From an uncultured Verrucomicrobiae bacterium (lineage in GTDB: Bacteria; Verrucomicrobiota; Verrucomicrobiia; Chthoniobacterales; Chthoniobacteraceae): a DNA stretch of 64,000 bases. The stretch's first letter is position 1, and the number at the start of each line of letters is the position of its first letter. Under the pieces are notes generated by a model. That model was not told the DNA's origin and did not search any database. It saw only the letters and a list, made by a program, of their open reading frames with translations. Position numbers and translations under genes: made by a program. The DNA lies in NCBI GenBank assembly GCA_963828525.1, contig CAWHEP010000003.1:50751-114750 (forward strand). Direction: 5' to 3'. Shown in pieces: positions 33,924-44,940 of the stretch.

Positions 33924-36014
33924 CTATTGAGCTTTTGCGTCTTCAATCGCGTTTCTTCGCAAGCTCTCGGCATGCCGCAAAGCCTCGGCCGCATCAGCTT
34001 TCCTGCCGAGTTCATCAAGAATGACTGACAACATGGCGAACTCACCAGGTTGAGCGGGGTCACGACGAATCGCAGCCATCTCCGCTTCATAAGCCGCGTC
34101 TGGCCTTTTCTGTTTCAGGTCGACCTGCGCGATAAGATTCAGGGGCTCTGTGCCATGGATATTCAATGTACTGGCATGGATAAGCGCGGTAATGGCAGAG
34201 GCTTCGTCGGACCGGGCGAGACGCAGTTGGCTGAGGCGCATATACGAATCATAATGCCACCAGTGCCGCGCCGTATAATCCTCAACCATCCGTTCGGCGT
34301 CCTTCGCGCGAGAAGCCTTCTGAAGAATATCTGCTTCCGTGCTTACCAGATCCCAAACGTCAGGGTTTTTCTTGATCGCTTCGTCCAGAGTCGAGATCGC
34401 CTCCGCGACTTTTCCGTCCTCACTTTCCAGGCGCCCCAGCGCGACAGCCGCCGCCCATGTGCGCGGGTAAGGTTTCGCGCTGGAATCGGCTGGCGCCCGA
34501 GCGGATACCAAATATTGGCGCGCCTCGTCTTTCCTCCCAAGCTCCGCAAGATTGATCCCCAAGTTGATCCTCGCGGGCGCGAAGTCCGGGAACCGCTTTA
34601 CTCCGTCCGTCAAAACTTCCACAGCCTTAACATAATCGTGGCGCTGATTGTAAACGAACCCGAGGTTGGTGTACATGCGGGCCGATCCGGCTCCGGCGCG
34701 GATCGTCTGCTTGTAGAACGCCTCGGGGTTGGCCCATTCCTGGCTGCGGAGCGCTGTCCTTACCCCCAGCGCGAATATCGCCAGCACCAGCAGTCCTGTC
34801 GCGATAGGAATGATTCTCCTGTGAAGCGCGAAGGCACAGCCGGCGAGGAAAAGCAGGAATCCAATGCTAGGAATGTAAATCCAATGTTCGGCGACCTGCG
34901 CGTTCAGAGGAAAAAGATTTGAGATCGGCAGGAAACCCGCCGTAAACCAGACGGCGGAAAACAGGCAGAGGCGCTTCCCTTGGAAGTTTTTCGAAGGCAC
35001 CCATGCTAACAGGGCGAGTGTCGCAGCGCCAAATATGGATAAGTATTCGAATCGTATGTTTTGCTCCCAAACCTCGCGCGTGGCGTAAGTCGCAGGAGAA
35101 AAAACAACCCTTTCCATGTGCAGATCGCCCGGAAAAAGCATGAGGCTGCTGTAGTCGCCGAGGGCCCGAAGCATCAGGAGAATACGGGCGGGAAGTGTCT
35201 CCGCGGAATCTTCCCTCAAGGGCGTTCTCGGCCCCGGCAGACTGCGAAGAACGTAATATGCCATCACTACTCCCAACAGCGCGGCGCACACGGCCACGAC
35301 TGAACGCGCGGAAGGACGAGGTTTGGGCCCTGACGCCTCGAAGATGAGCGCTATGGTGAACAACTCCATCCATACAAGCCCCACTTCCTTGGAGCAAAGA
35401 GCCACAAGGGCGAGTACGAGAGCGAAGGCGTAGAGGCTTATTTTCCCACCGCGAGACGGCACCTGCCGTCCTTTCAGAAATCCCAGCCACGCCGCCAGAG
35501 CGAATAATGCGGCAAGGCTATCTGCCCGGCCCGCGATGTAGGCGACAGCCGCGTTATGGACTGGGTGAATCACCCATACAAGGGACACCATGAACGCAAT
35601 CCCCCGGTCATCCCGCGGATCCCGTGAGACGCCGGCTTCGCTCGTAAGACCCGGCAGGATGTTACACAACAGCTTGAAAAGGAGACACCCGCTAAGTCCA
35701 TGGAGCAGGATATTCGTGAGATGGTAGCCGAAGGAGTTCGTGTTCCACAGCCAGTAGTCCAGCATGTACGACCAGTTCTGAACCGGCCTGTAGTAGATCG
35801 AGAAGGAGTCGAGAAAGAGCCAGTGGCGAAATACCTCAAAGAAAAAGATCGGACTTTTGAAGAATGGATTCTCCCGAACAAGGTAATGGTCATCCCACAG
35901 GATGTCGCCTTGCAGTGCCGGAGAATAAACAAGCAGAGCGCTGCCAAGCAGAAACAGGAGCGCAAGGGAATCGCGAATCCAGATGACTGAGAGGGCCTTG
36001 GTTAATCTGCTCAT
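33924..36014 (-). CDS. TMTC/DUF1736-like GT-C membrane glycosyltransferase fused to C-terminal TPR repeats
   Basis: Polytopic N-terminus with the first-loop motif ILWDDHYLVRENP and YYRPVQNWSYMLDYWLW...GYHLTNILLH. C-terminal TPR array of about 250 aa. I prefer the ATG at 36014. Confidence 0.7.
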   Translation of the reverse strand: MSRLTKALSVIWIRDSLALLFLLGSALLVYSPALQGDILWDDHYLVRENPFFKSPIFFFEVFRHWLFLDSFSIYYRPVQNWSYMLDYWLWNTNSFGYHLTNILLHGLSGCLLFKLLCNILPGLTSEAGVSRDPRDDRGIAFMVSLVWVIHPVHNAAVAYIAGRADSLAALFALAAWLGFLKGRQVPSRGGKISLYAFALVLALVALCSKEVGLVWMELFTIALIFEASGPKPRPSARSVVAVCAALLGVVMAYYVLRSLPGPRTPLREDSAETLPARILLMLRALGDYSSLMLFPGDLHMERVVFSPATYATREVWEQNIRFEYLSIFGAATLALLAWVPSKNFQGKRLCLFSAVWFTAGFLPISNLFPLNAQVAEHWIYIPSIGFLLFLAGCAFALHRRIIPIATGLLVLAIFALGVRTALRSQEWANPEAFYKQTIRAGAGSARMYTNLGFVYNQRHDYVKAVEVLTDGVKRFPDFAPARINLGINLAELGRKDEARQYLVSARAPADSSAKPYPRTWAAAVALGRLESEDGKVAEAISTLDEAIKKNPDVWDLVSTEADILQKASRAKDAERMVEDYTARHWWHYDSYMRLSQLRLARSDEASAITALIHASTLNIHGTEPLNLIAQVDLKQKRPDAAYEAEMAAIRRDPAQPGEFAMLSVILDELGRKADAAEALRHAESLRRNAIEDAKAQ

Positions 36015-36053
36015 GGAACGCCCCTTGACGATAGGGATCCCTCGCCAAACGCG

Positions 36054-36103
36054 CAAACATCCAGTCGCCCCGGTTCAAAGGAGAACGGACGACTGGATGT
36101 TTG
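36054..36103 (-). terminator. long hairpin 15 nt downstream of pseudopilin 1 (terminator or mRNA-stabilising stem-loop)
   Basis: 14-bp outer stem, CAAACATCCAGTCG / CGACTGGATGTTTG on the coding strand, with a 22-nt loop that can form an inner helix. The U-tract is weak. Confidence 0.5.
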
Positions 36104-43015: not shown

Positions 43016-43020
43016 CGGCG

Positions 43021-44940
43021 CTATTTCGACTCCATTCTACTTGCGGGCCGCATCGACAGCGCGAATCCGAGATTCCTCCTCGCATCCAAAGAGGCGGGAC
43101 GAAGCCGAAGCGCGATCCGATAATGAATTATGGCCTCCTCCAAACGGCCCAGCCTCATCAAAACATTGCCAAGATTGTTGTGCGCGTCCGCATAGTCGGG
43201 AGCAAGGGAAATGGCGGACGCATACTCAGAGCCTGCGTTTACAAAGTCGCCTTTTCCCTGCAGCGCGTTACCGAGGTTATAGTGAGCTTTCGCGTAGTCC
43301 GGACGAACGCGGAGCGCGGCTCTAAACTGGACGATTGCTTCGTCCGCCGCCCCTTCTCCTAACAGGGCGCTCCCCAAATTATTGAGCGTCTCGGGGAAGT
43401 TTGGACGGGTCGCCAGGTCTGCGCGAAATTCCCGGATTGCCTCGTCCAGCTTTCCGCTCGCCAGCATGGAATTGCCAAGCGCATAGTGAGCAGGAGCGTA
43501 GGCCGGGTCGTCCATGATGGCGGTTCGAAGCGCCTGGACGCCTGATTCGCTGTGCCCTTCATCGATCAACGCGATACCAAGATTGCAGCGAGCCTCAGCA
43601 TAGTGAGGCTTGATCGCCAGAGCGCTCTCGTATTGCAAGACGGCTTCAGGGATTCGTTTTTTGTCGGCGAGAGCGTTCCCGAGATCATTGTGGGCGATGT
43701 AGTTCTCTGAAGAGCAGGTGAGCGCCCGGGTCCAAAGTGACTCCCCATCCACCCAGAACGAATCCTGCCTTCTCGCGCATATAAGCAGAGCAACCAGCGT
43801 GATGCATGCTACTGGACGCGCGAATCTGGAGAGACCGGCGCGTAAAAAGACCGAATGCCCCAGCCACGCGGCGGCGATATAGAGACCTATCTGCGGAAGA
43901 TAGGTGTATCGATCTGCCCGCGCTTGCATGCCTACCTGCACAAGCCCGGCTACTGGCACAAGCATCCCTAAGTACCAGAGCCATCCAATCAGAAGGCAAG
44001 GCTGCGTTTCAAAAAGGAGCAGGCTGCCCGCCGTAATCGCAACGAGGACTAACGACGAGATGATTACCGTCGCCAGCACAGGACCGTCGGGAGCAAGTGG
44101 ATAGAACACAGCGAGCTTTGCCGGATAGACCATCTCCAGGAGGTACGTTGAACAGGCGACAACCGCGTTCTCGACGCGCTGCGTCACGGGGAGTAATTGC
44201 AAGGGCTGAAGTCCTCCCCTTTGGGCCATCAACGTGATTGTTGAAATAGCAGCCGAAAGAGAGAAAAGAGGCAGTTTTTCGAGCACGAGGCGCCTCCAGC
44301 CCTCCTGATATCTTTCGAGCGGCCAGGCGTCGAGAAGTAGAAGTACAAAAGGCAGCGTGACAAGCGTGGGCTTGGAGAGCAGCCCAAAGGCAAAGAACAG
44401 CATAACCGGAACGTACGCGCCGATCTTCCGCTGACGCTGGATATACCGAACATAAGCCCACAGCGTTAACATGAAGAAAAACCCACTCAGAACATCCTTG
44501 CGTTCAGAGATCCAGACGACCGATTCCACCCTCAAGGGATGAATGGCAAAGGCGGCAGCGGCGAACGCGCTGCGATAGATCGCCCCGGTCATTTGGAGAA
44601 GCGCGGCGAAAAGAACGATCGTGGAGCAAGCATGCAGAATGACGCTGCTCAGATGATGCCCCCAAGGTTTTAGCCCATAGATCTCGCAGTCGACCATATG
44701 GCTGAGCCACGTGAGTGGATGCCAGTTTCCGGTGTGCGTATCAGTAAACGCCCATACTACGCCGGCAACGCCAAGGCCCCGGGCAACTTCTGAATTTTGG
44801 TAAACATAGACATTATCGTCGTAGTTTACGAAGCCGCAGCGCAAGGCAGGCGCGAACGCGGCGAAGACCAGCGCTACTAAGAACGCGCAGATGAGATATG
44901 AGCGCCGCGCGCCTGGAGCGGTTTCAAGGCCAGCGTTCAT
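43021..44940 (-). CDS. TMTC/DUF1736-like GT-C membrane glycosyltransferase fused to C-terminal TPR repeats
   Basis: FVNYDDNVYVYQN and GNWHPLTWLSHMVDCEIYGLKPWGHHLSSVILH. C-terminal TPR array including YAEARCNLGIAL, YAPAHYALGNSM, YAKAHYNLGNAL and YADAHNNLGNVL. Confidence 0.7.
   Translation of the reverse strand: MNAGLETAPGARRSYLICAFLVALVFAAFAPALRCGFVNYDDNVYVYQNSEVARGLGVAGVVWAFTDTHTGNWHPLTWLSHMVDCEIYGLKPWGHHLSSVILHACSTIVLFAALLQMTGAIYRSAFAAAAFAIHPLRVESVVWISERKDVLSGFFFMLTLWAYVRYIQRQRKIGAYVPVMLFFAFGLLSKPTLVTLPFVLLLLDAWPLERYQEGWRRLVLEKLPLFSLSAAISTITLMAQRGGLQPLQLLPVTQRVENAVVACSTYLLEMVYPAKLAVFYPLAPDGPVLATVIISSLVLVAITAGSLLLFETQPCLLIGWLWYLGMLVPVAGLVQVGMQARADRYTYLPQIGLYIAAAWLGHSVFLRAGLSRFARPVACITLVALLICARRQDSFWVDGESLWTRALTCSSENYIAHNDLGNALADKKRIPEAVLQYESALAIKPHYAEARCNLGIALIDEGHSESGVQALRTAIMDDPAYAPAHYALGNSMLASGKLDEAIREFRADLATRPNFPETLNNLGSALLGEGAADEAIVQFRAALRVRPDYAKAHYNLGNALQGKGDFVNAGSEYASAISLAPDYADAHNNLGNVLMRLGRLEEAIIHYRIALRLRPASLDARRNLGFALSMRPASRMESK

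Follow-up and report, generated by a model that had tools for sequence, protein, structure and literature searches.

A pilin-linked unit of TPR-fused membrane glycosyltransferases in Chthoniobacterales as a candidate system for pilin glycosylation

Described systems and the pilin-linked locus

Among the described systems that modify type IV pilins, the closest to the one considered here is TfpW of Pseudomonas aeruginosa group IV (Pa5196/PA7), a protein of 646 amino acids (aa) with 11 transmembrane (TM) helices, a DDX motif in its first loop and a periplasmic C-terminal tetratricopeptide repeat (TPR) region, whose gene stands immediately downstream of pilA and which is necessary and sufficient to polymerise D-arabinofuranose (D-Araf) and transfer it onto the pilin (bioRxiv 10.1101/2020.04.19.049825). 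The present analysis concerns a block of eight genes (positions 33924-44940) in a 64-kb stretch of DNA from an uncultured Chthoniobacteraceae bacterium of the phylum Verrucomicrobiota; the full stretch is called the window, positions refer to it unless another locus is named, the eight open reading frames (ORFs) are labelled A, P1, P2, B, C, D, E and F, and L-numbers denote fetched loci. At the heart of the block lie two pilin genes, P1 and P2, with A downstream on their strand and B divergent from them, A and B each coding for a membrane domain of the predicted glycosyltransferase C (GT-C) type with C-terminal TPRs. This arrangement is conserved and is interpreted here, with moderate confidence, as a dedicated periplasmic glycosylation system for the major type IV pilin of Chthoniobacterales, accompanied in this genome by C, D and E.

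The likeness of A to TfpW is one of architecture and gene position, not of sequence comparison: its gene lies directly downstream of a major pilin gene on the same strand, and the protein, at 696 as against 646 aa, has a first-loop DD, 11 TM helices and a periplasmic TPR region, the last two by prediction. The proline-rich TfpW motif YX6PFX7P, sited in the final large loop on the periplasmic side, is matched in A only in part, by an invariant Y288-x6-P295 ahead of the last TM helices, with the second proline at x11; F, a paralogue of A, matches the form YX6PX7P more fully as Y-x6-P-x7-P (YLLEMVYPAKLAVFYP). The present locus differs in belonging to a different phylum, in having two distinct TPR-fused GT-Cs (A and B) rather than one flanking the pilins, in its tandem duplicated pilin genes, and in its extra TPR-less GT-Cs (GT87/MptA-B-like and PMT-like) and fusion of a GT2 domain to a methyltransferase. 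No D-Araf precursor genes were seen here, and the enzyme families point to hexose or mannose.

A second parallel might be struck with eukaryotic TMTC1-4 (GT105), protein O-mannosyltransferases acting on cadherins, with 11 TM helices and TPRs, characterised by the motifs M1-M7, among them M2 SHKSYRP, M4 KE(T/Q)xxT and M7 ERxxY (PMC7801869). A and F share with these the 11 TM helices and the C-terminal TPR on the non-cytoplasmic side, as predicted, together with counterparts of M1, M2, M3, M4 and M7 in order, the matches in M2, M4 and M7 being partial: DD41-42, YYRP74-77, R163-A-D165, K209-E210 and E376-H-W-I-Y380 in A, and DD41-42, WHP, R147-K-D149, K190-P-T-L-V-T and D343-R-Y-T-Y347 in F. The TMTC3 segment FAVHPIHT likewise resembles the A/F segment HP(V/L)H/R..(A/E)(A/S)V. 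The conserved DW motif (M5, loop EL4) was not seen in the A/F alignment, and DUF1736 matches neither A nor F at E <= 10, a scan of 28 members of the family at E <= 1 likewise giving no match. As this loop model fails, A and F are not filed as TMTC members; the label "TMTC-like", given to them in an initial annotation of this DNA, is borne out by architecture and five of the seven published motifs but not by DUF1736. Further differences are that A and F are bacterial and that the proposed acceptor is a pilin, not a cadherin domain.

Two other groups of systems bear comparison. Three-component extracytoplasmic systems, such as GtrABC, ArnC/ArnT and CsbB/YfhO, combine a GT2 polyprenyl-phosphate-sugar synthase, a flippase and a GT-C, and the PMT and MptA_B/GT87 families use polyprenyl-phosphate-mannose outside the cytoplasmic membrane. 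The locus resembles the former in that E homologues with a GT2 domain (like AglJ, PpgS and dolichol-phosphate mannose (DPM) synthase) are clustered with GT-Cs, and differs from them in that the cluster holds no GtrA/SMR-type flippase gene, the GT2 domain is fused to a methyltransferase and degenerate in the window, several GT-Cs are present and the proposed target is a protein. It resembles actinobacterial Pmt and mycobacterial MptA-MptB in that D matches PMT and C matches MptA_B/GT87, but D is short (395 aa) and without MIR, the Pfam match of C is partial, and the host is not an actinobacterium and has no lipomannan or lipoarabinomannan.

Full-text literature searches found no description of this cluster. 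It is less novel than the initial annotation had supposed, since TfpW, itself encoded directly downstream of pilA and with 11 TM helices, is already a pilin-linked glycosyltransferase combining GT-C and TPR. The new elements are the Verrucomicrobiota setting, the bracketing of tandem pilins by two TPR-fused GT-Cs, the variable extra GT-Cs with a GT2-methyltransferase fusion, and the association of one TMTC-like subfamily in bacteria with a particular candidate substrate. The literature searches found no assigned substrate for bacterial TMTC-like GT-C+TPR proteins, and we know of none.

Conservation of the unit and its pilins

A pilin-seeded set of 85 loci, made up of 80 species-level genome loci and five from pilin look-ups, was searched with the window proteins. 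The conserved core consists of B, divergent from one to four genes for pilins ending in FWSPY, and then A on the pilin strand; this oriented unit is found in about 28 of the 85 loci, across which orthologues of A are 41-62% identical and those of B 41-64%. In about 25 genome loci A stands directly downstream of a pilin gene and shares its strand; B orthologues are always divergent from a pilin gene. Among the 38 loci of the flank-completeness subset, A and B occur together in 11, A alone in none, B alone in three and neither in 24. Ten metagenome loci with orthologues of A (at least 44% identity) have FWSPY pilins directly upstream in nine cases and B wherever the contig extends far enough, and both of the two B-seeded look-ups returned the whole unit, which is also present in a cultured isolate, Chthoniobacter flavus Ellin428 (L086), with a B-like gene at 6186-8153 of that locus, pilin genes at 8356-8766 and 9352-9762 and an A-like gene at 10001-12085.

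The genes flanking the block in the window, namely SurA-like, ribonucleotide reductase (RNR) and GT2 genes, recur only in L001-L003, which are copies of one close relative's locus, with the GT2 gene alone recurring also in L042. Residual synteny as the source of the adjacency was rejected on these grounds, since B, pilin and A are kept together while the flanking genes differ. The adjacency of pilin and GT-C genes is far beyond chance; its conservation in relatives, on which the initial annotation had made its proposal of a pilin glycosylation module hinge, holds in many Chthoniobacterales genomes with differing flanks.

Within the unit, enzyme and substrate genes alike differ in number from species to species, with up to four pilin genes (L018, L045) and one or two A-type genes per related cluster. 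In L015 (1255-4467) two A-type genes detected by tblastn stand in tandem downstream of the pilins, and L170 (2473-6646) has two tandem TPR proteins of 708 and 678 aa in the same place.

P1 (36119-36517, minus strand, 132 aa) and P2 (36664-37071, minus strand, 135 aa) are 74% identical to each other and match N_methyl (1.8e-7 and 4.3e-9, respectively) and TIGR02532. Both have a class III signal peptide with G-1, F+1 and E+5 and a hydrophobic alpha-1 helix, the sequence reading ...NRGG up to position -1 and FTLVEIMIVVAII from +1. The shared stretch KTGTTLY(A/S)TG(A/S)DLFGN and the C-terminal FWSPY that had been noted in the two proteins are present, the latter with one more residue after it. The P2 family is large: all 8000 scored candidates fell at E <= 0.001, the best 120 of these being 72-100% identical, and the few members with an organism name belong to Chthoniobacter or Chthoniobacteraceae; an exact look-up of the P2 sequence returned no record. 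The family alignment reveals conservation of the entire globular domain, including ...LSDVAxxxFWSPY, and no cysteines, and this domain gave no match to any equivalog model. At P2 positions 69, 86, 91, 99, 107 and 110 serine and threonine interchange with the hydroxyl kept, and S123 and S132 are almost always serine; in sequence terms these conserved positions are candidate glycosylation sites and nothing more, for pilins that are themselves proposed substrates.

The pilins are multi-copy per genome. A separate clade of GT-C-linked pilins, distinct from solitary ones, was considered and rejected, as linked and solitary copies intermingle in identity clustering and one metagenome-assembled genome has near-identical copies of both kinds. 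One genome has the linked locus L088 and a solitary pilin gene, L004, on the same 2.25-Mb contig; in L004 a polyprenyl synthase gene comes directly after the pilin.

A hairpin stands directly 3' of most pilin genes of the family, as in loci L056-L097, with a minimum free energy (MFE) below -30 in 85 of 92, and many are accompanied by U-tracts. In the window the stem-loop after P1 lies at 36054-36103 (minus strand; MFE -40.3 kcal/mol, z = -6.8) and that after P2 at 36592-36651 (minus strand; MFE -32.4 kcal/mol, z = -6.3). The two share their arm sequences, ACATCCAGT[CT]G...C[AG]ACTGGATGT, which implies that the pilin duplication took the hairpin along. Standing ahead of A, the first of these probably acts as a partial terminator or attenuator, and post-pilin hairpins in general fit a highly expressed major subunit with attenuated read-through. 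Upstream, the divergent intergenic region between P2 and B (37072-37145; 74 bp, AT-rich) is presumed to be the site of both promoters. Scans of the DNA with sigma-70 promoter and terminator consensus sequences gave no enrichment over shuffled sequence, which yields as many matches as the lone weak sigma-70-like one at 37052-37079.

The initial annotation had regarded P1 and P2 as orphan pseudopilins. Given the abundance and the 75-84% conservation of their family, its strong hairpins and the occurrence of some paralogues beside PilT/PilB-type ATPases, they look instead like major type IV pilin-like subunits present in multiple copies. As had been observed, no pilus or type II secretion system (T2SS) assembly genes are nearby: none was detected by Pfam among ten flanking ORFs scanned, and no secretion-ATPase Walker motif occurs anywhere in the window. 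Solitary pilin paralogues at L017, L030 and L035 adjoin PilT-like Walker A motifs. Two T2SSE-family ATPases of PilT/PilB size (367-425 aa) are identified by Pfam in each of L017 (1389-4291) and L030 (2863-5229), and the ATPase of L035 (~4074) by motif match only. These ATPase-adjacent paralogues furnish a lead to the machinery assembling the pilins. A PD-(D/E)XK nuclease gene lies between both ATPase genes in L017, and an HNH endonuclease gene is near those of L030.

The enzymes of the cluster

All eight ORFs of the cluster were recovered where the initial annotation had placed them. The ATGA overlaps of B with C and of C with D are real, so that C is translationally coupled to B and D to C, and the gap between E and F is 5 nt. 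Pfam matches verify the TPR domains of A, B and F, and the acidic first-loop motifs (WDD, YDD, GGDMKFYND, SND and YDE) are present in all five GT-Cs, with the Asp invariant in the family alignments. The assignment of all five to the GT-C class fared unevenly, being upheld by Pfam for D and C, sub-threshold for B, and without a matching Pfam model for the membrane domains of A and F.

A (33924-36014, minus strand) begins 104 nt after P1, and an identical 696-aa protein is on record (P0121). Prediction gives a positively charged N-terminus, 11 long hydrophobic helices and TPRs from about residue 430; in the AlphaFold2 (AF2) model (predicted local distance difference test score (pLDDT) 87.5, predicted template modelling score (pTM) 0.88) TM1 is followed by a loop with short helices that starts at W40-D41-D42 and then by ten more long helices, the membrane domain covering residues 1 to about 426. 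Alignments of 28 and of 50 sequences show no variation at D41 and D42, and further invariants are P77, H150 P151, R163 x D165, K209, Y288 x6 P295 and Y380. In profile comparisons with hhalign, A matches the F family at 99.9% and the B family at E = 2.6e-4, A/F match B at 67% probability (E = 5e-5) and F matches D at E = 7.6e-4, and one member of the A/F family matches PMT_2 at 2.2e-7. Motifs, profile-profile scores and the structure model are thus what lead to the prediction that A and F are GT-Cs.

B (37146-39020, plus strand) is a PMT_2/ArnT-like GT-C with a large periplasmic loop and C-terminal TPRs, whose AF2 model has a pLDDT of 87.1. Its own match to PMT_2 (0.006, 17.3 bits) lies below the cut-off of 26.1; seven of 20 homologues match PMT_2 and one is TMEM260-like, so that by sequence the membership of B in the PMT/PMT_2 (GT39/GT83) clan is borderline. 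D50, SAHSG, YDD352-354 and TERYR are invariant.

C, D and E are variable accessories, the set of accessory glycosyltransferases differing between species, as is expected of a locus setting glycan structure. C (39017-40297, plus strand), a GT87/MptA-B/ALG6-8-like GT-C without TPR, matches Alg6_Alg8 (1.2e-7, 31.5 bits against a cut-off of 25) over model positions 93-194 only and GT87 at 0.004; its homologues match MptA_B_family and GT87, its D40 is invariant in the family alignment, and zero to two copies of its type occur per related cluster. It is proposed to extend the glycan chain. D (40294-41481, plus strand, 395 aa) is a PMT (GT39)-like GT-C without TPR and without the MIR domain known from eukaryotic PMTs, matching PMT at 7.9e-13 (49 bits against a cut-off of 22.7) and PMT_2 at 1e-5; D52 is invariant and E53 nearly so, and related clusters have zero to three such genes. 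In the C. flavus locus (12143-14200) a DUF2079 membrane protein gene is convergent on the A-like gene, where C, D and E stand elsewhere, and genes for TPR/GT41 (OGT-like) proteins lie 1-7 kb upstream of the B-like gene (1-5039), the GT41 matches comprising two intact ORFs, one called as two pieces, besides flanking TPR-rich ORFs.

E (41534-43015, minus strand), convergent on D, is a recurrent accessory, and its homologues adjoin D in at least six clusters (L026, L027, L042, L046, L069 and L088). Its class I S-adenosylmethionine (SAM) methyltransferase half is conserved and matches Methyltransf_23 at 2.5e-15; its N-terminal domain of about 245 aa has no Pfam match in the window, and E homologues match Glycos_transf_2, that of L088 having the GT2 fold with DD and DxD-type motifs for nucleotide-sugar binding and aligning with AglJ (4.8e-20), PpgS and the Pyrococcus DPM synthase 5mlz (2.7e-10). 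A frameshift as the origin of the odd N-terminus was rejected, since a single high-scoring segment pair in one frame spans residues 7-490. The description of E as a GT2-like/SAM-methyltransferase fusion therefore stands for the methyltransferase and, through the homologues, for the GT2 fold, but not for GT2 catalysis in the window, where the catalytic motifs are lost. Judged by its sequence the GT2 half is probably inactive in this genome, and the domain seems to be decaying here alone.

F (43021-44940, minus strand), a TMTC-like GT-C+TPR protein, is 22% identical to A (E = 4e-20), and its D41/D42 are invariant in the family alignment. Its family is a very large, poorly annotated bacterial GT-C+TPR group with no Pfam model over the membrane domain: the F-type membrane domain as query retrieved 69,503 clusters (50% identity) at E <= 1e-3 and 17,685 at E <= 1e-30, and "protein O-mannosyl-transferase" is the name under which NCBI or JGI lists some of the homologues. 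A Pfam scan of 40 representatives is uninformative on PMT_2 and DUF1736, its 25-family summary being filled by TPR families. About 65 F-type loci from many environments are without any pilin, and pilin-like ORFs occur in three of about 69 F-type or distant A/F loci. The few F-type genes that follow pilins (L056, L083, L134 and L158) follow pilins of another class. F had been counted in the pilin module; belonging to a huge general family almost never found beside a pilin, it is a general paralogue of A that probably lies outside the pilin unit. The F-type genes of Pedosphaera-like ("subdivision 3") genomes follow Cys-containing pilins ending in ...H(x)LP (L083, 10001-12065; L084, 251-6047; L056), and the A/F family may have acquired linkage to pilins on more than one occasion.

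Proposed function, alternatives and surroundings

Several lines of evidence converge on the reading of B, pilin(s) and A as a dedicated glycosylation system: the synteny of the unit, the co-occurrence of A and B, the invariant catalytic-type residues, the TfpW-like architecture and the TMTC motifs, together with the match of C and D to mannosyltransferase families, the resemblance of E homologues to polyprenyl-phosphate-hexose synthases and the conserved hydroxyls of the pilins. The modification would most likely be periplasmic O-glycosylation, and probably O-mannosylation. The observed gene content, motifs and conserved synteny, with the predicted topology, suggest a scheme in which the pilin as substrate, the sugar, the order of action and the role of methylation are all proposed. 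The prepilins would insert in the inner membrane and project their globular domains into the periplasm, where A and B, as polytopic GT-Cs, would present both the catalytic Asp motifs of their first periplasmic loop and their TPRs. The TPR domains may bind the pilin, with A and B moving a sugar from a polyprenyl-phosphate donor onto its Ser/Thr residues; partners resembling PMT, MptA-B/GT87 and DPM synthase make polyprenyl-phosphate-mannose, or its counterpart with another hexose, the most likely donor. The TPR-less C (MptA/B/GT87-like) and D (PMT-like) could then add or extend residues, and, as the accessory set differs, the glycan composition would differ between species. Polyprenyl-phosphate-hexose synthases are the class of enzymes that make lipid-linked monosaccharide donors for GT-Cs, and in relatives the GT2 domain of E may do so at the cytoplasmic face, while the methyltransferase domain may modify the glycan or the donor; in this genome, with the GT2 domain looking inactive, the donor would have to come from elsewhere. 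Solitary pilin paralogues elsewhere in the genome might be modified in trans.

A number of observations weigh against this reading. About two thirds of the family pilin loci are without a GT-C neighbour, and upstream of the A orthologue of L094 the available 1 kb contains no pilin gene. The GT2 half of E in the window is degenerate, with "IDDSS" replaced by "FSFVHH", "HGDGQY" by "PAGADA", "GSRM" lost and 8 aa deleted, and the cluster contains no flippase or sugar-nucleotide genes. As to the GT-C nature of the enzymes, profile-profile links to PMT-type families are weak (25-67% probability, E 5e-5 to 8e-4), neither Pfam nor the sequences of the PDB gave a match for the membrane domain of A or of F, HMM profiles built on the membrane domains of A/F, B, C and D found no usable match in the PDB, and full-length PDB searches with A, B and F returned only TPR matches. 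A Foldseek search of the PDB with full-length models of A and B leaves the GT-C fold unconfirmed, the top 50 hits being all TPR proteins.

The strongest of the alternatives, although clearly less probable than pilin glycosylation, is that the GT-C/TPR enzymes act on other envelope targets, be they many proteins of the periplasm or outer membrane, lipopolysaccharide/lipid A or exopolysaccharide, and that their adjacency to pilins reflects co-regulation or shared inheritance. ArnT, which modifies lipid A, also belongs to PMT_2 by Pfam name, paralogues of the F type abound everywhere without pilins, the unlinked two thirds of the pilin genes are as expected from it, and a Wzm/Wzt-type exporter (Wzm being only a guess) and a polyprenyl synthase are encoded about 8-10 kb away. 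It accounts poorly for orthologues of A and B almost never occurring away from a pilin despite differing flanks, for the position of A after the pilin on the same strand behind a leaky-looking hairpin, and for the action of the TPR-fused GT-Cs TMTC and TfpW on protein acceptors.

A non-catalytic role for A and B, as TPR scaffolds or chaperones anchored in the membrane, is improbable, and more so than other envelope targets; descended from GT-C ancestors, they would stabilise the pilins or assist in pilus assembly, after the manner of the TPR proteins PilF/PilW/Tgl/TadD. Models of the PilW, Tgl and PilF type do match their TPR parts, "Flp pilus assembly protein TadD" is the JGI name of some homologues, and A has no Pfam glycosyltransferase match; against such a role, the residues in catalytic or donor-binding places, namely the DD, RxD, KE and (E/D)(R/H)xxY of A and the D50 and YDD of B, are invariant across 28-50 sequences of 40-60% identity, and C, D and E, encoded in the same cluster, are enzymes of glycan pathways. 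Mere coincidence, in a phylum whose members have many prepilin-type genes and with a pilin family rich in solitary paralogues, has a negligible likelihood and is refuted by the recurrence, between unrelated flanks, of the same oriented arrangement in species-level genomes and metagenome contigs by the dozen.

If pilin glycosylation is the function, the TfpW paradigm would reach Verrucomicrobiota, a dominant soil phylum, and the pili of abundant soil bacteria would bear species-variable glycans, with a bearing on phage resistance, adhesion and aggregation. Through their linkage to pilins, the subfamilies of A and B offer a concrete enzyme-substrate hypothesis in a culturable organism, C. flavus Ellin428, and might provide a tractable bacterial model for the choice of folded acceptors by TPR-fused GT-Cs, including those encoded by the human disease genes TMTC1-4. 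A more elaborate version is tentative and, taken as a whole, rather unlikely: A would be the first bacterial TMTC-type GT-C with a genetically linked protein substrate, A and B would start O-glycans at distinct Ser/Thr residues of the folded pilin, and C/D-like enzymes would build a mannan-type, possibly methyl-capped, species-variable oligosaccharide on it in the periplasm, in a lipomannan-style polymerisation on protein.

Outside the cluster, a gene for a class II (B12-type) RNR (45063-48176, minus strand) is split into four reading-frame segments by three frameshifts, near 46780, 46620 and 45597, and is intact in the close relative L001 as a 1017-aa ORF; the split gene is either a pseudogene or the product of assembly indel errors. 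If the latter, other genes of the window may hold errors too; all cluster genes align full-length to homologues. On the other side, about 8-10 kb from A, lie the polyprenyl synthase gene (23151-24176) and a gene for a Wzt-type ABC ATPase with a Wzt_C domain (24930-26381), beside which the ORF at 26252-27136 is, as a guess, the Wzm partner. A link of this neighbourhood to lipid-carrier supply is possible.

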